Sequence record: OL770107
Source: Escherichia phage CLB_P2
Direction: 5' to 3' (one strand)
Length of the DNA stretch: 64,000 bases
The position numbers and the translations under genes are program-made. Of the stretch, positions 19,326-64,000 are shown one piece after another (within the stretch, counting starts at the first letter, position 1; each line of letters starts with the position of its first letter). The notes beneath the pieces were generated by a model, which saw nothing but the letters and a program-made list of their open reading frames with translations, was not told where the DNA came from and ran no database searches.

Positions 19326-19949
19326 ATGAAAACTTACAATGAATTTTTGAACGAAAGCGTTCTGACTGAAGCCAGCGTGCGCATGACTAAAGATATGTGG
19401 CAAGCTGCTTATGATAAAATTTCCGGGACTAAAACCACTACCGAGTTCTTTAAAAACGTTTATGATATGTATGGTTTTGATACTAGTAACCAGAAAGAAT
19501 ATTACAAAGCTTCCAAAGCTTTTAAAGATATCGTAGCCGGTGGCGCTACTAAGCCCGCTAAACCAGCTAAAGCTCCTGTTGCTAAACCTGCAGCCCCAAC
19601 CAAAGTTGCACCACCTAAACCTGCTGCAGCGCCTAAAGCAGCGCCTGTAAAAGAAGCTCCTAAACCTAAAATCAAGTTCGACACCAGCACTATTGTTAAA
19701 AAATATAACCAACTGGCCTCTTTGGTTTCTGAAATCGAATCCGAAACTAAACATCTTGTTCGTGAATTCAACACTCTTCGTAATGGTCAACACATTAACA
19801 ACCTAGATACCCCGGACCTTTATCGTCTCTATCTGACGGTTGAAGGCCTTAAGTACACCCAGCCTATGCGCGAAGAAATTGATAACAAACTTCGTCAAGC
19901 ACGCCGACTGGCTGGTGACGCAGCTCAGTTCGAAAAGACCCGTAAATAA
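19326..19949 (+). CDS. internal-protein-like protein with capsid-targeting leader and Ala/Pro/Lys-rich linker
   Basis: N-terminus MKTYNEFLNE resembles the internal-protein leader; central PAKPAKAPVAKPAAPTKVAPPKPAAAPKAAP low-complexity basic segment; own late promoter. Confidence 0.55.
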   Translation: MKTYNEFLNESVLTEASVRMTKDMWQAAYDKISGTKTTTEFFKNVYDMYGFDTSNQKEYYKASKAFKDIVAGGATKPAKPAKAPVAKPAAPTKVAPPKPAAAPKAAPVKEAPKPKIKFDTSTIVKKYNQLASLVSEIESETKHLVREFNTLRNGQHINNLDTPDLYRLYLTVEGLKYTQPMREEIDNKLRQARRLAGDAAQFEKTRK

Positions 19950-24700: not shown

Positions 24701-25660
24701 ATGATGCTAGTTATTGGTTCTCGTGCACTGCACCACGCTGGTCTGATTGAAAGTAAGTATATCGAAAATTCTGATTGGGATTTCATTGCCGACCAAGGCT
24801 CATGGAATCAATTTAAAGCCCGGATGTTCGGCGCCCATGTTCCTGTGGATAATCCAGATGTCCAGGCCTTTAAATGCATGCACAACGGTAAAGAAACCTA
24901 TTTTGAAGCTTATATCGTCCGGGCCCTGACTAACGTACGAGAAATCACCGGTGAGCTTCAGGACGAAGATTTCACCTCAAGTTATCGTCTTCTGAAATAT
25001 GCCGAAAATCATATTAAAAAGGACCGTCTTACGGGTTTCTATTGGGCCACACCTGATATCTGTCTGGCCATCAAAATGAGCCATCGTTATTTGAAGAACA
25101 ACCCTTTCTTTTTGAAGACGATGTCCCACATCAAATACCTTCGTAATAAAGGTGTAACCTTGAATGAAGAGCTCCAAGAAATCATGCTGCAACGTCAGAA
25201 AGAAACGTTGAGCTATTCTCATCCTAAATTAGATGTAAACAAATCATCGTTCTTTAATGATACCATCTATACATTAGACCACGACTCTATTCATGAAGCT
25301 GTGGCATTAGCCGGACGCCCAGCGTATACCTTTTATATGAAAGATGGTTCTGAAGTCATGACCTCTCGTGAGAAGTTTGAAGCTTTGCCTGAAGCTATTA
25401 AACTGGCAGGGGTTTATGAAGAAGCATGTGTACTTGCTCTAGAGCGTTCGCAGGTTCCTAATGACTTTAATATCCCAGCTGCTACAAGTTTCTATATGGC
25501 TCTTGAGAAAGTGTGCACCTCAATCACTTCAGGTTGGTTCCGTGAGTATGCCTGGGAAAACTACCAAGCTGTAGTGAATATGTATAGGACCCTAGGTGAA
25601 AGTGACTACATCAACCGGTTTAAGCGTAATCAACATTTAATTCGTCCTTTCGAAAAATAA
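24701..25660 (+). CDS. hypothetical protein, possible nucleotidyltransferase-fold N-terminus
   Basis: 319 aa; N-terminal IGSRA...SDWDFI loosely fits the G[GS]...D.D nucleotidyltransferase signature, but spacing is longer than typical. Confidence 0.4.
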   Translation: MMLVIGSRALHHAGLIESKYIENSDWDFIADQGSWNQFKARMFGAHVPVDNPDVQAFKCMHNGKETYFEAYIVRALTNVREITGELQDEDFTSSYRLLKYAENHIKKDRLTGFYWATPDICLAIKMSHRYLKNNPFFLKTMSHIKYLRNKGVTLNEELQEIMLQRQKETLSYSHPKLDVNKSSFFNDTIYTLDHDSIHEAVALAGRPAYTFYMKDGSEVMTSREKFEALPEAIKLAGVYEEACVLALERSQVPNDFNIPAATSFYMALEKVCTSITSGWFREYAWENYQAVVNMYRTLGESDYINRFKRNQHLIRPFEK

Positions 25661-48584: not shown

Positions 48585-48620
48585 TGCTTTAAACAGGTCT
48601 TCAAATACTATGATATAATA
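48585..48620 (+). promoter_or_regulatory. promoter upstream of gene 55 (MotA-box-like TGCTTTA plus -10 region)
   Basis: TGCTTTA followed by TACTAT/TATAAT elements and an inverted repeat ggtct/agacc. Confidence 0.4.
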
Positions 48621-48650
48621 GACCTATGATTTGAGTTATCTGAGGTAACA

Positions 48651-49208
48651 ATGACCGAAATTAAACTGACTAAAAATAACTATGTAAATAATAAGGAGCT
48701 TCTGAAAGCCATTACCCAGTGGAAAACAGAGCTCCGAGAAAATACCGATCCTAATAAAATAGTTCGTCAGAACGATGTTATCGGCTTGGCTATTATGCTC
48801 ATTGCTGAGGGCCTTTCTAAGCGTTTCAACTTCTCCGGGTATACCCAATCCTGGAAGCAAGAAATGATTGCTGATGGAATCGAAGCTTCTATTAAAGGTC
48901 TTCACAACTTCGACGAAACAAAATACGACAACCCACATGCATATATCACTATGGCTTGTTTTAATGCCTTTGTTCAGCGTATCAAGAAAGAACGTAAAGA
49001 AATGGCAAAGAAATACAGCTACTTCGTCCATAACGTTTATGACGCTAATGACGACGACATGGTAGGTATCGCAGATGAAACTTTTATCCAGGATATTTAC
49101 GACAAAATGACTCAGTATGAAACCTCTTTAGTTAAAGCGCCAGGGTCTGATAAGAGCGCCGAATCTAAAGTTGGTGAGCTGGATTTTTTATATGGAACTC
49201 AAGATTAA
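48651..49208 (+). CDS. 55: late-transcription sigma factor gp55
   Basis: 185 aa, same length as T4 gp55; position upstream of 47/46. Confidence 0.8.
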
Positions 49209-49419
49209 CCTGGTAGGCCTTTTAGAAGAAGTAGATGGAGAGTATTCGGCAATTCCTTATGTTCTTAAAATGTATCTTAAGGATATTGCCAAGCTTCCTA
49301 TTGTAATAGACCCAAAACACCCTGATTCGGTAGAAATTAAAGCTGAAAAAGGAACATTAACTTATAACTATCACGTTACCGACGAAGATTTTTATATAAA
49401 ACTGAATTACAAGGATTAA
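49192..49419 (+). CDS. hypothetical protein
   Basis: 75 aa ORF overlapping the end of gene 55. Confidence 0.35.
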
Positions 49420-49420
49420 T

Positions 49421-49732
49421 ATGCAAAGCACCGACATTTCTCAATTGACCGAAGAGCAAATTGAAGAAGCCCAGAAGCGTTTAGAAGAGAATAATGCTAA
49501 AGAAGCCGCTTCTCAAGCTGCCAAAATTCTTAAAAAGAATGCCCGTGAAATTAAGCGTCTTAATACACATGCTCAGGGCGCTGTTCTCGAAAACAATTTC
49601 GAAGCTTACAAATATGCTATAATTAAATTACGTGGTATTTACCGTCAACCGACTACTGACGAAATCGTTAGAGTTATGTGGGAAACTACGCGTAAACAGA
49701 TTTGGGAAATTATCAATGGCGCTAGTAAATAA
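49421..49732 (+). CDS. hypothetical protein
   Basis: 103 aa helical ORF. Confidence 0.4.
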   Translation: MQSTDISQLTEEQIEEAQKRLEENNAKEAASQAAKILKKNAREIKRLNTHAQGAVLENNFEAYKYAIIKLRGIYRQPTTDEIVRVMWETTRKQIWEIINGASK

Positions 49733-49916
49733 ACCCTTTAAACGGCTTCTTATTGGAGCCGCCTTCAGACTTCGCTCATACGGTAATATTTGTATTAAGC
49801 AGTCCGAAACCGAATATAAAATGAGTGGGCAATATTCCGATGAAATTTTTCGGATTGAGCCTGTAGCCAAGGTTTGGGTGGATTCACACCAACTTAAGAA
49901 ATGGTGGCAACGATGA
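49716..49916 (+). CDS. hypothetical basic protein
   Basis: 66 aa ORF. Confidence 0.3.
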   Translation: MALVNKPFKRLLIGAAFRLRSYGNICIKQSETEYKMSGQYSDEIFRIEPVAKVWVDSHQLKKWWQR

Positions 49917-49935
49917 TAACATGGACAGGTGGCTA

Positions 49936-50027
49936 ATGAAAGACGAACATCCGGATTTTTAAGCTATGAATGACGAATACGAAAAAGTTTAAGAGGTTTT
50001 ATGAATGACGAATTCGACGGATTTTGA
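49936..50027 (+). repeat. three tandem roughly 30-bp units, each an 8-codon mini-ORF
   Basis: ATGAAAGACGAACAT..TAA, ATGAATGACGAATAC..TAA, ATGAATGACGAATTC..TGA at 49936, 49966, 50001. Confidence 0.5.
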
Positions 50028-50178
50028 TAAGATTAAATCTGACAAAAATGAGATGATACTTAAATTTGAAGCCGCTCGTATTAAAGCGGAAAAAGAAGGT
50101 ACTATTACTCATAAGAAAATCAAGTTCACGTCTAATCGCGAACCTCTGTATGGTGTATTAGTTGGTAAAGGAGCTTAG
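50005..50178 (+). CDS. small hypothetical protein (57 aa)
   Basis: ORF below track cutoff, ends in terminator hairpin. Confidence 0.3.
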   Translation: MTNSTDFDKIKSDKNEMILKFEAARIKAEKEGTITHKKIKFTSNREPLYGVLVGKGA

Positions 50179-50191
50179 GCTCCTTTTTTTG
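50168..50191 (+). terminator. rho-independent terminator
   Basis: Hairpin ggagc-ttag-gctcc followed by TTTTTTT. Confidence 0.65.
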
Positions 50192-50215
50192 CTTTATTCA
50201 TGGCGGAGTATAATA
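50190..50215 (+). promoter_or_regulatory. MotA-dependent middle promoter
   Basis: TGCTTTA, exactly 12-nt spacer, TATAAT. Confidence 0.55.
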
Positions 50216-50235
50216 GTCTAAACTGAGGAGAACAT

Positions 50236-50379
50236 ATGGAATTATTTTTAGGATATGTCGTGTTATTCATGGCATTCTACACATTCACAAGAGCTTGTTG
50301 GATAGGATTCTTTTCCACTCCTGACGGGTTCATTTCAATAATTTTATTTTGCACTGCGATAACGGCGCTTGGCTTATGA
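50236..50379 (+). CDS. small membrane protein (47 aa)
   Basis: Hydrophobic ORF with SD GAGGAG; stop overlaps gene 47 ATG (ATGA). Confidence 0.35.
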   Translation: MELFLGYVVLFMAFYTFTRACWIGFFSTPDGFISIILFCTAITALGL

Positions 50380-51398
50380 AAATATTAAACACAGGTGACT
50401 GGCACCTTGGAGTTAAGGCCGATGATGTATGGGTACAGAATATCCAACGTCAAGGTATCCAAGACGCTATCAATTATTCTAAAGCAAATGGCATTACTGT
50501 ATGGATTCAATACGGTGATATCTTTGACGTTCGTAAAGCAATTACCCATAAGTGTATGGAATTCGCTCGCGAAATCTCTGATTTGCTTAAAGCTAACGGC
50601 ATTACCATGTATACCGTTGTTGGTAATCATGATATGCACTACAAAAATACCTTGACTCCTAACGCTGCTTCTGAAGTTCTCGGCAAATACGACCATATCA
50701 AGGTTATTGAAAAACCTACTACGGTTAACTTTGATGGCACCGAAATTGATTTGATTCCATGGATGTGTGAAGAAAACACAACTGATATCATGGACCATAT
50801 CAAAAATACAACGGCAGATTTCTGTATTGGCCATTGGGAATTAAATGGTTTCTATTTCTATAAAGGAATGAAATCTCATGGTTTAGAACCTGATTTCCTT
50901 AAAAAGTATAAGCAAGTTTGGTCAGGCCACTTCCACACTATTTCTGATGCAGCAAACGTTAAGTACATTGGTACTCCATGGACCCTTACTGCAGGTGATG
51001 AGAACGACCCTCGTGGTTTCTGGATTTTCGATACCGAAACTCATAAAATGGATTTCATCATTAATGAAACCTGTTGGCATCGTAAGATTCATTATCCTAA
51101 CGCGACTATCGATTACAAAGATTTTACAAATATCGCAGTTCGTGTTATAGTCGATAAAATTGATGACGGCCTTACTAAGTTCGAATCAGAGCTTGAAAAG
51201 GTTGTTCACTCTTTACGTATTGTGTCTAAGGTAGATAATAGTGTTGATACCGATGATTCTGAAGAGGAAGACGAAGTTAAATCCCTCTTGGATATGATGT
51301 ATGATTATATCGATGCCCTGCCTGATGGCCACACTGAAGCCGATGTTAAGGCCCTCAAAACTATGGCTGCACAACTTTATAATGAGGTTACACGATGA
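50376..51398 (+). CDS. 47: recombination endonuclease subunit gp47 (Mre11-like)
   Basis: 340 aa; N-terminal MKILNTGDWHLG phosphoesterase motif; GNHD motif. Confidence 0.85.
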   Translation: MKILNTGDWHLGVKADDVWVQNIQRQGIQDAINYSKANGITVWIQYGDIFDVRKAITHKCMEFAREISDLLKANGITMYTVVGNHDMHYKNTLTPNAASEVLGKYDHIKVIEKPTTVNFDGTEIDLIPWMCEENTTDIMDHIKNTTADFCIGHWELNGFYFYKGMKSHGLEPDFLKKYKQVWSGHFHTISDAANVKYIGTPWTLTAGDENDPRGFWIFDTETHKMDFIINETCWHRKIHYPNATIDYKDFTNIAVRVIVDKIDDGLTKFESELEKVVHSLRIVSKVDNSVDTDDSEEEDEVKSLLDMMYDYIDALPDGHTEADVKALKTMAAQLYNEVTR

Positions 51399-51658
51399 CT
51401 TTAGATGAATTCAAAAAATCAGGACTTGAACTGGAACACGACTGTATAGTTATTGATGATGATGGTCAACCTAGTACAATTAAGTTCTGGTTTGAAGCTG
51501 TGAGCAATCGTGATACCGACGAGCTTATTAAAGTTTATGTTGCTACCGATTGGGCTGTGGAATTTAGCTTTAATGTAATGGTAGACGATACTCCAGAAAC
51601 ATTAATTCATATGGCTGAATCATGCATCAAGGATGCTTATAATGATGAAAATGTATAA
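51395..51658 (+). CDS. hypothetical protein (46.1-like position)
   Basis: 87 aa ORF between 47 and 46. Confidence 0.4.
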   Translation: MTLDEFKKSGLELEHDCIVIDDDGQPSTIKFWFEAVSNRDTDELIKVYVATDWAVEFSFNVMVDDTPETLIHMAESCIKDAYNDENV

Positions 51659-57174: not shown

Positions 57175-59886
57175 ATGCAAGAATTCTATTTGACAGTCGA
57201 ACAAATCGGTGATAATATTCTCGAACGTTACATCGATAAAAATGGTAACGAACGTAGTCGTGAAGTTCCTTACAAGCCTACAATGTTTATGCATGCTAAC
57301 CCAGAGCAAGCCGTAAAATATATTGACATCTACGGTAAGGGCTGTGTTAAGAAAGAATTCAATTCAATGCGCGATGCTTCTCAGTGGATGAAGCGCATGG
57401 ACGATATGGGTCTCGAAGCCCTTGGTATGGATGACTATAAATTAGCCTATTTGTCTGATACCTATCGTAAAGAAATCAAGTATGATTCTTCTAAGATTCG
57501 TATTGCTAACTTCGACATCGAGGTAACATCTCCTGATGGATTCCCTGAACCTGCCCAGGCTAAACATCCTATCGATGCCATTACTCACTACGACTCGATT
57601 GATGATAAATTCTATGTATTCGACCTTTTAGTTTCACCTTATGGTACGGTCGAAGAGTGGTCGATTAAAATCGCTGAGAAACTCCAAGACGAAGGTGGTG
57701 ACGAAGTTCCACAGGAAATCATTGACAAAATCGTTTATCTTCCGTTTAATTCTGAAGAAGAAATGATGCTTGAGTATCTTAATTTCTGGCAACAGAAAAC
57801 TCCTGTGATTTTGACTGGATGGAACGTTGAATCATTTGACGTGCCATACGTTTATAACCGTCTGAAAAATCTGTTTGGTGAGAACACTGCTAAGCGATTA
57901 AGCCCGCATCGTAAGACTCGTGTTAAAGTTATCGAGAACATGTACGGCGCTCGCGAAATTATTACACTGTTCGGTATCTCTGTTCTGGATTATATCGACC
58001 TTTATAAAAAATTCAGCTTTACCAACCAGCCTTCTTATTCTCTGGATTATGTTTCTGAATATGAATTGAAAGTAGGTAAGTTGAAATATGATGGCCCTAT
58101 CTCCAAGTTACGTGAGACGAACCACCAACGATATATTTCCTATAACATTATCGACGTATATCGTGTTGTGCAGATTGATATGAAACGCCAGTTCATTCTT
58201 CTTAGTCTGGACATGGGTTACTATGCCAAGATGCAGATTCAGTCGGTGTTCAGTCCAATTAAGACTTGGGACGCCATTATTTTTAATAGCCTTAAAGAAC
58301 AGGGTAAAGTTATTCCTCAGGCCAAATCGCATGCGGTTCAACCTTATCCGGGTGCTTTCGTTAAGGAACCTATTCCTAACGCGTACAAATATGTAATGAG
58401 TTTCGACCTTACATCTCTGTACCCGAGTATCATTCGACAAGTGAATATAAGCCCAGAGACCATCGCAGGCACATTCGCCAACGCACCGATACATGAATAT
58501 ATTGCCGGAACTGCTCCGCGTCCTAGCGACACCTACAGTTGCTCTCCTAACGGCATGATGTACTATAAAGACCGTGATGGTGTGATTCCTACAGAAATCA
58601 CGAAGGTGTTCTTACAACGTAAAGAACATAAAGGTTATATGCTTGCAGCTCAACGTAATGGTGAGTTAATTAAAGAAGCATTAGAAAATCCTAATCTGTC
58701 TGTTGATAGTCCATTGGATGTTGATTATCGTTTCGACTTCTCTGACGAAGTCAAAGCCCAGATTAAAAAATTGTCAGCATCTTCTTTAAAAGAAATGTTG
58801 TTCAAAGCCGAACGTACTGAAGTCGCAGGTATGACTGCTCAGATTAACCGTAAATTGCTTATCAACTCCCTTTATGGTGCACTTGGTAACGTATGGTTCC
58901 GTTACTATGACCTCAGGAACGCAACTGCAATAACATTGTTTGGTCAAATGGCCCTCCAATGGATTGAACGTAAGGTTAACGAATATCTGAATGGCGTATG
59001 TAAGACCGAAAACCAGAAGTTCGTGCTTTATGGTGATACTGACTCCATTTATGTTAAGGCTGATGCAATTATCAATAAAGTAGGCGAAGACAAATTCCGT
59101 GATACCAACCACTGGGTTGACTTCTTAGATAAATTTGCACGTGAACGTATGGAACCAGCTATTGATGCAGGCTTCCGTGAGATGTGTGAATACATGAACA
59201 ATAAACAGCACTTGATGTTCATGGACCGAGAAGCTATCGCTGGTCCTCCACTTGGTTCTAAAGGTCTTGGTGGATTCTGGACAGGCAAGAAACGTTATGC
59301 ACTGAACGTTTGGGACATGGAAGGTACTCGTTATGCCGAACCACACTTGAAAATCATGGGTCTCGAAACCCAGAAATCAAGTACACCTAAAGCGGTTCAG
59401 AAAGCTCTGAAAGAATGTATCCGTCGTATGCTTCAAGAAGGCGAGGCCTCTTTGCAAGAATATTTCAAACAGTTTAATAAGGAATTTAACGAACTAGACT
59501 ATGTAAGCATTGCTGCAGTATCCAGTGCTAACAACATCGAGAAATATAATGAAGGCGGTTTCCCTGGTTCTAAATGTCCGTACCACATCAAAGGTTGCTT
59601 AGCTTACATGCGTGCTTCTGCTGGTGATTTGACTATGCCTCGTATCGTTGATGGTGAAAAGGTATATGTACTACCACTTAAAGAAGGCAACCCGTTCGGT
59701 GAAGCTTGTATGGCATGGCCGTCAGGTATTGAACTTCCGATTCAGATTCGTGACCAAGTCCTCCGTTGGATGGACTACAACGTATTGTTCCAAAAGACCT
59801 TTATCAAACCTCTGACCGGTTTTACTGAGTCTGCTAAAATTGACTACGAGAAAAAAGCAACATTATTTGACATGTTCGACTTTTAA
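57175..59886 (+). CDS. 43: DNA polymerase gp43 (family B)
   Basis: 903 aa from MQEFY; exonuclease motifs (FDIE, YNIIDV), polymerase motifs SLYPSII, KILINSLYGALG, YGDTDS match T4 gp43. Confidence 0.9.
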   Translation: MQEFYLTVEQIGDNILERYIDKNGNERSREVPYKPTMFMHANPEQAVKYIDIYGKGCVKKEFNSMRDASQWMKRMDDMGLEALGMDDYKLAYLSDTYRKEIKYDSSKIRIANFDIEVTSPDGFPEPAQAKHPIDAITHYDSIDDKFYVFDLLVSPYGTVEEWSIKIAEKLQDEGGDEVPQEIIDKIVYLPFNSEEEMMLEYLNFWQQKTPVILTGWNVESFDVPYVYNRLKNLFGENTAKRLSPHRKTRVKVIENMYGAREIITLFGISVLDYIDLYKKFSFTNQPSYSLDYVSEYELKVGKLKYDGPISKLRETNHQRYISYNIIDVYRVVQIDMKRQFILLSLDMGYYAKMQIQSVFSPIKTWDAIIFNSLKEQGKVIPQAKSHAVQPYPGAFVKEPIPNAYKYVMSFDLTSLYPSIIRQVNISPETIAGTFANAPIHEYIAGTAPRPSDTYSCSPNGMMYYKDRDGVIPTEITKVFLQRKEHKGYMLAAQRNGELIKEALENPNLSVDSPLDVDYRFDFSDEVKAQIKKLSASSLKEMLFKAERTEVAGMTAQINRKLLINSLYGALGNVWFRYYDLRNATAITLFGQMALQWIERKVNEYLNGVCKTENQKFVLYGDTDSIYVKADAIINKVGEDKFRDTNHWVDFLDKFARERMEPAIDAGFREMCEYMNNKQHLMFMDREAIAGPPLGSKGLGGFWTGKKRYALNVWDMEGTRYAEPHLKIMGLETQKSSTPKAVQKALKECIRRMLQEGEASLQEYFKQFNKEFNELDYVSIAAVSSANNIEKYNEGGFPGSKCPYHIKGCLAYMRASAGDLTMPRIVDGEKVYVLPLKEGNPFGEACMAWPSGIELPIQIRDQVLRWMDYNVLFQKTFIKPLTGFTESAKIDYEKKATLFDMFDF

Positions 59887-59948: not shown

Positions 59949-60185
59949 ATGGAAGCTTTAATCGTTAGTGCTGGTGTTTTAGGATTCGGTTCTCTGGTTA
60001 TTATGTTCATTGGTTACTTTTTACCATGGATTCTGGCTCTTCTGCGAGGCACTCGTAGCAATGTCGGAATCTTCTTCCTTAATCTTCTGTTAGGATGGAC
60101 GATGATTGGTTGGGTAGTGGCTTTAATCTGGGCTATCGTCGCCGAACGTAAATCAAACGCACAAATCATTATCGTTAAACAATGA
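59949..60185 (+). CDS. membrane protein, Imm-like by position
   Basis: 78 aa with two transmembrane helices immediately downstream of gene 43 where T4 has imm.1/imm. Confidence 0.4.
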   Translation: MEALIVSAGVLGFGSLVIMFIGYFLPWILALLRGTRSNVGIFFLNLLLGWTMIGWVVALIWAIVAERKSNAQIIIVKQ

Positions 60186-60326: not shown

Positions 60327-60827
60327 ATGAAAAAGTTAATTATCGCAATGAGTATGCTCCTATCAGGTTGCGCGGTCCAATACGGTGATGCGGTTTCGGC
60401 TGATGAAGTTGGTAAAGCTCGTATTGCAGCTGAACAGAAACAATTCGACGGCGAGATGAAATTCCATGCCGGTTCTGGACTTGTGTATACCCGAGCTAAT
60501 AATCAATGTGGTAATAACTGTGCAAAATATGCTCAAAGGGAAATCGAATTCCAACGTGAACAAGAGTCTAAGCGTGAAGCGGTACTAGCCAAACACCAGG
60601 CAGAAATGAAGCGCCAAGATGATTTGTACAAAAAGCAGAAACTGTATGCTATGTGTGTAAACCATATCAATTTACAGATTTCCGTCCACGAGGCTCGTTA
60701 TTACGAAATGCTCGAAACCGAGAGCTTCGATAAGGCTCGTGATTATAAGAAACAAATCAACAAGCTTAAGACCAAAGTGCCTGCTGCAGTAGAACAGTGC
60801 ATGGAATACGGTAAAGATAAGATTTAA
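60327..60827 (+). CDS. lipoprotein
   Basis: Signal peptide with lipobox LLSGC; 166 aa. Confidence 0.5.
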   Translation: MKKLIIAMSMLLSGCAVQYGDAVSADEVGKARIAAEQKQFDGEMKFHAGSGLVYTRANNQCGNNCAKYAQREIEFQREQESKREAVLAKHQAEMKRQDDLYKKQKLYAMCVNHINLQISVHEARYYEMLETESFDKARDYKKQINKLKTKVPAAVEQCMEYGKDKI

Positions 60828-60887: not shown

Positions 60888-62561
60888 ATGAAAAAGGTTG
60901 TTATTTTAGGCGCAGGTCTTGGCTCACGGTTGTATCCAATTACTAACGAAATCCCGAAGGTATTGGTTAACTACAAACAACATACGGTATTAAAGCATTT
61001 GTATGATTTGTATAGTAACCAATCAGATGAAATTATTCTGGTTATCCACAGCAAATTTAACGACCTCGTTAAAGGCTATATTAAATCCATTAACATGATT
61101 ACTGGCGATAAGCCTAAATTCACTATTCGTAACGTTGATGTTGCTAATGGTTCGGCCCATGCTATCGATTGCATTGCCGAAGATATCATTGGCCATAATG
61201 TCTTGTTTAACTGGTGTGACATCATTCCTATCGGTCATAAAGTTGAATGGGGTAACGACTACTGTTATACCTATGGAACCGACTGTCGTTTTACATTTGA
61301 AGAACCATACTTACGTGAAATTGGTACCGGTGGTGGCGTAGTTGGTTTGTATCAGGTAGCCAATTGGACAGGTTTCGACCGTTCTAATTATGGTGAAGAC
61401 CTTGCTGATAACCTGGATTCAATGGTCTATTTGACTGAACGTAAACTGGACTTTGTAGTTGATGTCGGTGACAAATTGAAACTGGCTAAGGCCCATGAAG
61501 AATCTGAAATTAACCGTGAATTTAATAAATTAGAGTTCACCGAGAATCTGGCTATTAAAGTACCAACTAACGAATTAGGTAAAGAAATTCAATCTAAAGA
61601 AATCAATTGGTATAATTCTATTGATTCTGAATTTGTTCCTAGCATTGTGGACTTTTCTCCAGGCGAATTCATTAAAATGGAACGTATCTTTGGTCGTACC
61701 ATGGCAGATGCCTACCGGTTTATGTCCAAAGAAACTAAAGTCCTCATGGTTTATAAGGTCATTAGTGCATTACGTTCATTTGGTGGAACTATTGATAATC
61801 CGTCCGATGAACAATGGTATTCTGATGTTAAGAAAGAAGTATTGGACAAGGTCCTTATTCGTAATGCTTCTATTGCTGGATTGATTGAAGGCTTTGCTCC
61901 ACAAGGCATTACCCACGTTAACGATTTCAAAGTAGGCGACCCTGAAAAACTTCTCCGCCATGCACTAGAAATTCTGTCTGAACATAAAGAACCATACCAA
62001 CTTATTCATGGCGACCCGCACTACAGTAATATTATGCTGTCGGACGAAGGTGATATTAAAATCATCGACCCACGCGGTTATTTCGGTAATAGTTCTAAAG
62101 GCCCTGCGATTTATGATGAAGCTAAGGTGCTTTATTCTATCGATGGCTATGATAAATTTAACTCAGACCCTCTATGGGGTGGATTAACTCGTAACGGAAC
62201 TCGTGTATTCGTCGATATCGAAAAGGTTATGCCTTTAGACGATATCCCTATGTGCACATTTAAGCACAAGCTCTGGATTGCTGTTATTTGGATGGCGCTG
62301 GCAGGTTACTTTAAGAATAACCCTCTGAAAGCTCTGGGTGCTTATTATAATGGTTTGTACCAACTGAGTGTGCTGCTGAAGCGGCATCCTCGTAAGCGTA
62401 AGCTTATTACGGGTGAATTTGTCGATGAAGTTCGTGACCCTATTACGGCTCAAATTATTACTCGTTGTCCTGATAAGTGGGTTTTGCTTGACCAGGAAAC
62501 TGGTGTAAAATATAAACCTACAGGTTCTACTGAACTCCACAAACAATGGAAGAAAATTTAA
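60888..62561 (+). CDS. bifunctional sugar-phosphate nucleotidyltransferase / kinase-like protein
   Basis: N-terminal ILGAGLGSRLYPIT..PKVLV (LicC/RmlA/MurU-type nucleotidyltransferase signature); C-terminal HGDPHYSNIM ... IIDPRGY (APH/choline-kinase-like catalytic motifs). Confidence 0.6.
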   Translation: MKKVVILGAGLGSRLYPITNEIPKVLVNYKQHTVLKHLYDLYSNQSDEIILVIHSKFNDLVKGYIKSINMITGDKPKFTIRNVDVANGSAHAIDCIAEDIIGHNVLFNWCDIIPIGHKVEWGNDYCYTYGTDCRFTFEEPYLREIGTGGGVVGLYQVANWTGFDRSNYGEDLADNLDSMVYLTERKLDFVVDVGDKLKLAKAHEESEINREFNKLEFTENLAIKVPTNELGKEIQSKEINWYNSIDSEFVPSIVDFSPGEFIKMERIFGRTMADAYRFMSKETKVLMVYKVISALRSFGGTIDNPSDEQWYSDVKKEVLDKVLIRNASIAGLIEGFAPQGITHVNDFKVGDPEKLLRHALEILSEHKEPYQLIHGDPHYSNIMLSDEGDIKIIDPRGYFGNSSKGPAIYDEAKVLYSIDGYDKFNSDPLWGGLTRNGTRVFVDIEKVMPLDDIPMCTFKHKLWIAVIWMALAGYFKNNPLKALGAYYNGLYQLSVLLKRHPRKRKLITGEFVDEVRDPITAQIITRCPDKWVLLDQETGVKYKPTGSTELHKQWKKI

Positions 62562-62944
62562 TGTCGCATCGAGTAGAAAATAAGCCACATTTATGTTTTG
62601 ATATCGATAACACAATCACGATTTGGAACCATGACCGTGATTATGAGAACTTTAAACCGGACACCGAAATGGTGTCCATGATTAATAAGCTTTATGATGA
62701 AGGGTACGAGATTACATTGTTCACTGCCCGTGGCATGACTTCATGTGGCCCAGGTCGAATCTTGGTTGAAGTAGTTCCTGCATTGGTTAAGAATCTTGAA
62801 AAAATTGGATTGAAATATCACAATTTGCTTACACACAAGCCGAGTTATACTTTTATCATCGATGACCGAGCAATCCGTCCTGACCACTTTAAAGAATTGG
62901 TTCGTGAAGGAACTCTTGATAGTTATAAGGCCTATCATCCATGA
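62561..62944 (+). CDS. HAD-superfamily phosphatase-like protein
   Basis: FDIDNTIT (HAD motif I DxDxT); TAARG-like motif II; start overlaps upstream stop (TAATG). Confidence 0.5.
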   Translation: MSHRVENKPHLCFDIDNTITIWNHDRDYENFKPDTEMVSMINKLYDEGYEITLFTARGMTSCGPGRILVEVVPALVKNLEKIGLKYHNLLTHKPSYTFIIDDRAIRPDHFKELVREGTLDSYKAYHP

Positions 62945-63477
62945 ATCCAAAAATCATTGTTATAGACGGCCCGGATAATTCCGGGAAGTCCACTTTAATT
63001 AAAAATCTGTTATCCAATAAGAAATACCGCCTTATTGATTTTCCTAAAAAGATTAATGGCAAGTGTATTTCATTAGGAACTGATAACGATAAGGCTTTAG
63101 TTGAAACTCTGTATAAGTTTTTAGACCCTAATTTCGTTTATATCCTTGACCGTGGTTATCCAAGTAATATTGTTTACTCAGGATTCCTTCGTGGTGAAAT
63201 GGACCCTTATGTAGAACTGGAAGATTGGAAAGGGTTTAAATCTGAATTTAACGTTATCGAGGTTATTTTAACTCGTAATCCATTAGACGAAGACTTCGAA
63301 GATGACCTTATTAAATTAACCAAAGATGAGTTCAACCTAACTATCCAGCAATACGAAACATGTTTTGAAAACGTGTTTAAAATCTTAAACCATGACGGCC
63401 ATAATAATTTGCTTAATGTTGATATGGTAGAATTAAAACGTCTGAACGAATATATTGAAAATAAGGTGAATAAATGA
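62941..63477 (+). CDS. P-loop nucleotide kinase (thymidylate-kinase-like)
   Basis: IVIDGPDNSGKSTL Walker A and LDRGYPSNIVYSG (DRY-like motif). Confidence 0.5.
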   Translation: MNPKIIVIDGPDNSGKSTLIKNLLSNKKYRLIDFPKKINGKCISLGTDNDKALVETLYKFLDPNFVYILDRGYPSNIVYSGFLRGEMDPYVELEDWKGFKSEFNVIEVILTRNPLDEDFEDDLIKLTKDEFNLTIQQYETCFENVFKILNHDGHNNLLNVDMVELKRLNEYIENKVNK

Positions 63478-64000
63478 AACACATTACCGCTGTTAGTTTT
63501 GAAAACGCATTTAAACAAATGAACGAAGAAATCCTGGAAGCTCCACAGTTTGCAGTTGATTCTCGTATCGGACGTTGTTATGAAATTGGTTCTGCTTCAG
63601 TAGAAGTACTGGATGCCAGCACCTATAAATTCACCGACCCACGTATCAATCGTATCAGTTATGAATATGCCGAATCCTTTTGGAAATTTATGATTTCTGG
63701 TGGTACTGACGCTGCCGAAGCATTTAAGGAATACCCTAATGTTGCTAAGTTCATTGATAAGCCGAAAAGTGACGTATTGCCTGCAAACTTCAACACTTTC
63801 TATGGACCTCGAATTGTGGCCCAACTCCCAGCCCTACTTAAAGAACTTAAAGAAAAGGCTAACTCGCGAAGAGTTGTGTTCCAGATTCTCCAAGAACAAG
63901 ACCAAGCCCTCCTTGATTCTGACGAATCCTTAGAATATCCGTGCACCGATTCGGTAACATATTATATTCGTGACGGACGTTTGTATGCACATACCCATAT
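63474..64000 (+). CDS. 42: dCMP hydroxymethylase-like (thymidylate synthase fold), 3' truncated by window end
   Basis: Open frame from ATG 63474 to the window end, not in the ORF track; NSRRVV and EYPCTDSVTYYIRDG align with T4 gp42 DSRRGI and FMCTNTVQYLIRD as recalled. Confidence 0.55.
   Translation, partial: MKHITAVSFENAFKQMNEEILEAPQFAVDSRIGRCYEIGSASVEVLDASTYKFTDPRINRISYEYAESFWKFMISGGTDAAEAFKEYPNVAKFIDKPKSDVLPANFNTFYGPRIVAQLPALLKELKEKANSRRVVFQILQEQDQALLDSDESLEYPCTDSVTYYIRDGRLYAHTH

Follow-up and report, generated by a model that had tools for sequence, protein, structure and literature searches.

A Dhakavirus whose gene 55-47 interval lacks alpha-glucosyltransferase, with a predicted RB69-like pathway to arabinosyl-5-hydroxycytosine

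Phage T4 encodes its alpha-glucosyltransferase, a-gt (structures 1xv5 and 1y6f), between genes 55 and 47, in the order 55, a-gt.5, a-gt.4, a-gt.3, a-gt.2, mobB, a-gt, 47.1, 47. Here we describe the corresponding interval in a 64,000-nucleotide (nt) stretch of Escherichia phage CLB_P2 (OL770107; referred to throughout as the window), from which a-gt is missing, together with the gene cluster between gene 43 and uvsX that is predicted to determine how the DNA of this phage is modified. The closest described system is that of the Mosigvirus RB69. Arabinose was found in RB69 DNA (Thomas 2018, PMC6024577), which has since been reported to carry arabinosylated 5-hydroxycytosine (5hoC) rather than arabinosyl-5-hydroxymethylcytosine (arabinosyl-hmC) (Lee 2026, PMC13326640). 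The latter study showed experimentally that 5-hydroxy-dCMP (5hodCMP) is made by RB69 gp48, and established Asn at the position of Escherichia coli ThyA residue 169 as diagnostic for 5hodCMP synthases. In the scheme proposed there, the first arabinosyltransferase is gp46:47, a single open reading frame (ORF) split by a sequencing error in the record, and the second is gp3, while gp52:53 and gp51 correspond to AfhE and AfhF of phage HY126, the makers of UDP-arabinofuranose. Phage Thanatos has a single transferase and adds one arabinose (PMC13326640); the same paper cites He 2026 and Mahler 2025.

For the Dhakaviruses, a 2010 review by Petrov et al. (PMC2993671) states that genes 42 and 56 are present in JS98 and that glucosyltransferases are lacking. 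The genus is counted among the groups with inferred conserved 5-hydroxydeoxycytidine (5hodC) biosynthesis, and appears in a figure of syntenic arabinosylation clusters (PMC13326640). The absence of a-gt and an alternative modification in Dhakavirus are thus published knowledge and not new to this work.

The window is an exact substring (100% identity) of the reverse complement of OZ035781.1 (Dhakavirus CLBP2), record positions 101329-165328. A megablast search with window positions 48600-51500 gave OZ035781.1 as the single 100% match, with JS98, JS10, IME281 and other Dhakavirus genomes at 95-97%. The source is a JS98-type, T4-like Dhakavirus. Whole-genome searches were run on the complete OZ035781.1 record (171,787 bp), which is unannotated, with the annotated type species JS98 (NC_010105) serving as the annotation reference. 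We conclude that this phage has no a-gt and very probably makes arabinosyl-5hoC by means of an RB69-like cluster, and not glucosyl-hmC; a-gt would not be needed because no glucosyl-hmC is made. A sequence-only reading of the window had proposed that the missing a-gt, taken with a cassette near gene 42, reflects a different modification chemistry. The arabinosylation cluster supports that proposal, with the correction that the predicted base is 5-hydroxy- rather than 5-hydroxymethyl-cytosine.

The gene 55-47 interval

The interval is bordered on the left by gene 55, encoding the late sigma factor (48651-49208, + strand; 78% identity to T4 gp55 over 185 amino acids (aa), E 6e-96), and on the right by gene 47, encoding an SbcD-like nuclease subunit (50376-51398, +; 71% identity to T4 gp47 over 339 aa, E 7e-163). 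The spacing between the two is 1167 nt compared to 3152 nt in T4, which is longer by 1985 nt. Within it lie five ORFs, each of which matches its T4 namesake by tblastn, while three of the five also match Pfam families of the DUF kind. The a-gt.5 homologue (49192-49419, +; 75 aa, or 82 aa if started at an upstream TTG) shows 51% identity (E 1e-17; DUF5491, E 1e-18) and, as in T4, shares 17 nt with the end of gene 55. It is followed by homologues of a-gt.4 (49421-49732, +; 103 aa, 43%, E 2e-21; DUF2654, E 1e-24), a-gt.3 (49716-49916, +; 66 aa, 48%, E 9e-15; annotated identically in JS98) and a-gt.2 (50005-50178, +; 57 aa, 44%, E 1e-16; DUF5486, E 3e-18). The last of the five is 47.1, a predicted membrane protein of 47 aa (50236-50379, +; 78% identity to T4 gp47.1, E 2e-20).

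The longest stop-to-stop frame inside the interval on either strand is 111 codons, compared to the 400 aa of T4 a-gt. No ORF of ~400 aa exists between a-gt.2 and 47.1, where the gap measures 57 nt. The sequence-only reading had placed only five ORFs of 47-103 aa and a mini-ORF repeat between gp55 and gp47, and this description is borne out; the limits it gave, 49192-50380, correspond to the start of a-gt.5 and the start of gp47.

The layout without a-gt is common to JS98, JS10, IME281, VR5, MX01 and RB69. Searching with 2.9 kb of sequence from gene 55 through gene 47 gave 65 phage records with coverage of at least 80%, all in this layout. Tequatroviruses match a separate query across the junction from the 47.1 side only. 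In JS98 the interval is ~97% identical at the DNA level, and its five ORFs already bear the names a-gt.5, a-gt.4, a-gt.3, a-gt.2 and 47.1; CLBP2, a record of this genus without annotation, does not differ from JS98 in any substantial way. The chance that a-gt was deleted in this isolate alone, or dropped out when this one genome was assembled, is negligible given that the layout recurs in the six phages named and in 65 records overall, and that the junction forms a well-formed regulatory unit rather than a scar. This explanation was consequently rejected on the comparative data.

No glucosyltransferase of a known T4-type family was found elsewhere in the genome. Using tblastn against the complete record, T4 a-gt gave no match (best E 0.074 over 36 aa), nor did T4 b-gt (best E 4.9) or the beta-alpha-glucosyltransferase of RB14, which is of the T2 type (best E 0.045). 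With blastn at a 7-nt word, the T4 mobB + a-gt DNA gave only 17-33-nt chance matches across the whole genome, several of these being other copies of the hairpin unit described below. A canonical a-gt at another site, the finding that would have overturned the sequence-only reading, is therefore not present by either search (tblastn best E 0.045; blastn matches of 17-33 nt only), and an a-gt remnant or relocated copy was rejected on the same grounds.

A census of ORFs beginning with ATG and encoding 150 aa or more yielded 127 in the genome, 16 of them without a T4 tblastn match. No glycosyltransferase (GT) family was detected among 15 T4-orphan ORFs by Pfam, or in a subset of these by PHROGs; this orphan scan left out a collagen-like ORF of 501 aa and a low-complexity ORF of 177 aa. 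A second GT candidate, the sole other GT-sized orphan (24701-25660), was discarded, as its structure model displays a MenT-like nucleotidyltransferase fold. These searches agree in finding no canonical glucosyltransferase, but GT-fold proteins are not wholly missing from the genome: a single 297-aa enzyme with a GT-B fold is encoded 169 nt past the window end.

Just upstream of a-gt.2, and overlapping its start, a chain of four mini-ORFs (49901-50034, +) encodes the peptides MVATMITWTGG, MKDEHPDF, MNDEYEKV and MNDEFDGF, each ending in a stop codon. The mini-ORF repeat mentioned in the sequence-only reading was located as a 35-nt tandem duplication (49965-49999 and 50000-50034, 74% identity), and the chain arose by this duplication of the a-gt.2 5' end. 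The N-terminus of T4 a-gt.2, MVATVKDEHP, is divided between the first two mini-ORFs. Repeat copy number varies within the genus, with VR5 and MX01 having one unit fewer. Translational coupling or a leader function are possible roles for the chain.

The regulatory unit at the junction

A hairpin resembling an intrinsic terminator, AAAGGAGC-TTAG-GCTCCTTT followed by a T run, was identified at 50167-50190 on the + strand by terminator scan, with an RNA folding energy of −13.7 kcal/mol (z −3.4). An alignment of the junction shows that this G+C-rich hairpin after a-gt.2 is conserved in CLBP2, JS98, RB69 and T4, and that it marks the exact site occupied by mobB + a-gt in T4. The mobB + a-gt module is cleanly missing here without remnant. 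Directly following the hairpin, upstream of 47.1-47-46, a pattern match revealed a site resembling a MotA-box middle promoter (50190-50214, +), consisting of TGCTTTA, 12 nt and TATAAT. The TGCTTTA/TATAAT element fits the consensus of the MotA-dependent middle promoters of T4. This pattern is found seven times in the window, all on the + strand, compared to 0.99 matches expected, and a motA homologue is encoded in the genome.

The combined hairpin and promoter unit is present once at this junction in CLBP2, RB69 and JS98. In T4 there are two such units, one after a-gt.2 and one after a-gt, and these bracket the mobB + a-gt module of ~2.1 kb. Bracketed in this way, mobB + a-gt in T4 is a transcription unit complete in itself, with a middle promoter, mobB, a-gt and a terminator. 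CLBP2 and T4 have the same flanking genes on either side and the hairpin + MotA-box unit in common; the difference lies in the module itself, which in CLBP2 is absent and without a sequence homologue genome-wide, the unlinked 297-aa protein resembling a-gt at the level of the GT-B fold only.

This arrangement recalls the PeSL cassettes (Arbiol 2010, PMC2839356; Comeau 2014, PMC4122927), in which a composite of terminator stem-loop and promoter likewise sits between modules. The resemblance extends to the duplicate unit that brackets a dispensable module in T4, and to the similar units found elsewhere in the CLBP2 genome. In contrast, the promoter at the present junction appears to be of the middle type (MotA-like), whereas published PeSLs contain a strong sigma-70 early promoter. 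The a-gt module may be gained or lost through recombination between repeated regulatory units, in the manner of PeSL cassettes.

Composites of a G+C-rich hairpin with MotA-box and -10 elements recur, at window positions 50167-50214 and, outside the window, at window-equivalent positions 82154 and 91422. The unit at 82154 (AAGGGCTTCGGCCCTTTTATGCTTTA) has almost the same sequence as the T4 unit after a-gt.

The cluster between gene 43 and uvsX and the predicted base

The "gene 42" of the cassette is a thymidylate-synthase homologue and predicted 5hodCMP synthase (63474-64000, +). Its gene is truncated where the window stops and extends in the record to window-equivalent position 64172 (record positions 101157-101855, complement). 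The protein shares 80% identity with RB69 gp48 compared to 24.5% with T4 gp42, and matches PDB entries 9iqu/9iqc with E 2e-125 as against 1.5e-4 for T4 gp42 (1b49). The position corresponding to ThyA 169 is Asn in both the CLBP2 synthase and RB69 gp48, and Asp in T4 gp42 and ThyA; the ThyA numbering used for this alignment fits the residues given in PMC13326640. The cassette noted near gene 42 is real and proves to be an arabinosylation cluster of the RB69/HY126 type; its "gene 42" does not encode a dCMP hydroxymethylase of the T4 type.

Directly after the synthase gene, with its start 169 nt beyond the window end and uvsX as its neighbour on the far side, lies the gene for the 297-aa GT-B-fold protein (window-equivalent 64169-65062; record positions 100267-101160, complement). 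The fold was identified by fold search only, as no Pfam or PDB match was obtained by sequence. The protein shares 70% identity with RB69 gp47 and 65% with gp46, and has 117 homologues, including proteins of Serratia phage 92A1, Acj9 and Acj61. It is an orthologue of RB69 arabinosyltransferase 1 (gp46:47), and is related to a-gt at the fold level only.

Could this enzyme nevertheless be a relocated, highly diverged alpha-glucosyltransferase, such that the phage still glucosylates hmC? We consider this very improbable. The protein shows ~11% identity to a-gt and no similarity by tblastn, in contrast to its 65-70% identity with the proposed first arabinosyltransferase of RB69. Its adjoining synthase carries the Asn-169 signature and is closely related to an RB69 enzyme shown to make 5hodCMP. 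In addition, a dedicated sugar-nucleotide pathway of the AfhE/AfhF type is present, which glucosylation with host UDP-glucose does not need.

This pathway is encoded upstream of the synthase. An AfhE-like bifunctional sugar kinase/nucleotidyltransferase of 557 aa (60888-62561, +; Pfam NTP_transferase + APH) is 41-44% identical to RB69 p053/p052 (E 6e-52 and 1e-72), and represents a fused form of RB69 gp53 and gp52. It is followed by an AfhF-like HAD phosphatase of 132 aa (62546-62944, +), with 62% identity to RB69 p051, i.e. gp51 (E 1e-54), and a match to PDB 9iqw (E 3e-54). Next is a thymidylate-kinase-like nucleotide kinase (62941-63477, +; 38% to RB69 p045, i.e. gp45, E 8e-31; PHROG 761, thymidylate kinase). 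Entries 9iqu/9iqc and 9iqw are probably HY126 enzymes, as they share a code series with 9iqz, titled "phage HY126 glycosyltransferase".

Membership in the RB69/HY126 type was judged by the presence of an arabinosyltransferase 1 orthologue with a GT-B fold beside the synthase, of an AfhE-like kinase/nucleotidyltransferase together with an AfhF-like HAD phosphatase, and of a synthase with the Asn-169 signature of 5hodCMP formation, each of which was found. The 55-47 interval of RB69 is likewise compact and free of a-gt. The same gene 43-uvsX cluster exists in JS98, where it is annotated as RB69 orf045c/047c/048c/051c/052c-like. Genes for the exclusion of cytosine are also present in the genome (gp56 dCTPase, Alc, DenA, DenB, gp1 and an IPI-like protein), while a homology search of the genome found Arn to be absent.

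The cluster differs from that of RB69 in its gene order, which is rearranged, and in the lack of several components. RB69 gp3, the second arabinosyltransferase, is absent from the genome (E 1.3), as are matches to RB69 gp50 and gp49 (tblastn) and to the arabinose-5-phosphate isomerase gp55 (tblastn best E 4.1). No ORF with a SIS domain was found among the ORFs without a T4 homologue. Between gene 43 (57175-59886) and the AfhE-like gene lie imm (59949-60185) and an ORF encoding a 166-aa lipoprotein-like product with the signal MKKLIIAMSMLLSGC (60327-60827; no Pfam family; orf43 of JS98). The latter adjoins imm, in the slot held in RB69 by the isomerase gene.

These components suggest the following route. 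The flavin-type thymidylate-synthase homologue would convert dCMP to 5hodCMP, which the nucleotide kinase would then phosphorylate. The AfhE-like kinase/uridylyltransferase and the AfhF-like phosphatase would turn arabinose 5-phosphate into UDP-arabinofuranose, from which the GT-B-fold orthologue of gp46:47 may transfer arabinose onto 5hoC in the DNA. E. coli has arabinose-5-phosphate isomerases of its own, KdsD and GutQ, and these could supply the arabinose 5-phosphate; a phage isomerase is probably not essential in this host. Given that neither a phage isomerase nor a second arabinosyltransferase is encoded, mono-arabinosyl-5hoC formed with the help of a host isomerase is predicted as the product. 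The analysis establishes the gene content, the homologies, the fold and the diagnostic residue, while the chemistry of the virion DNA, the chain length and the recombination route are deductions.

The missing isomerase and gp50-type enzyme might also indicate that the modified base bears a sugar other than arabinose, or that the pathway is a different one, a view to which the unmatched RB69 p055, p050 and p049 and the lipoprotein-like ORF in the isomerase slot lend some weight. It is nonetheless unlikely, as arabinose 5-phosphate is available from the host enzymes, and the kinase/uridylyltransferase, phosphatase and transferase are clear orthologues of the RB69 enzymes. Furthermore, solved structures that probably belong to the HY126 deposition series match both the phosphatase and the synthase very closely. 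A related proposal that we regard as doubtful is that Dhakaviruses use a stripped-down pathway, with one transferase, no phage isomerase and arabinose 5-phosphate from the host Kdo pathway. Its product would perhaps be unlike that of RB69, either strictly mono-arabinosyl-5hoC or with another pentose or linkage.

Several considerations weigh against the assignment of arabinosyl-5hoC and the account of the junction given above. The assignment is drawn from sequence comparison, and the searchable literature yielded no Dhakavirus DNA chemistry. The cluster is smaller than that of RB69, lacking gp55, gp50 and gp49, which leaves room for a different route to the sugar donor. Since the window stops short of the GT-B gene and of the final 172 nt of the synthase gene, the sequence of both was taken from the public record. 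The GT census was filtered by start codon, length and T4 homology, and may have overlooked a GT that is very small or begins with a codon other than ATG. At the junction, the promoter was called only from its fit to a consensus, and a simple sigma-70 scan returned none at this site; that recombination adds or removes the module is deduced from sequence architecture only.

Implications for annotation and a repeat-rich ORF

Dhakavirus records, including that of CLBP2, should not be labelled as those of hmC or glucosyl-hmC phages. We propose that the product of "gene 42" be annotated as 5-hydroxy-dCMP synthase, and the adjoining 297-aa "hypothetical protein" as DNA arabinosyltransferase. Which restriction, CRISPR and type IV defences a therapeutic phage can evade depends on how its DNA is modified, and a correct prediction (probably mono-arabinosyl-5hoC) is thus useful for phage choice.

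Elsewhere in the window, an ORF of 207 aa without a T4 homologue (19326-19949) contains a repeat rich in proline, alanine and lysine (KPAKPAKAPVAKPAAPTKVAPPKPAAAPKAAP). G+C content peaks at this place, reaching 0.439 at 19-20 kb, the highest value in the window.

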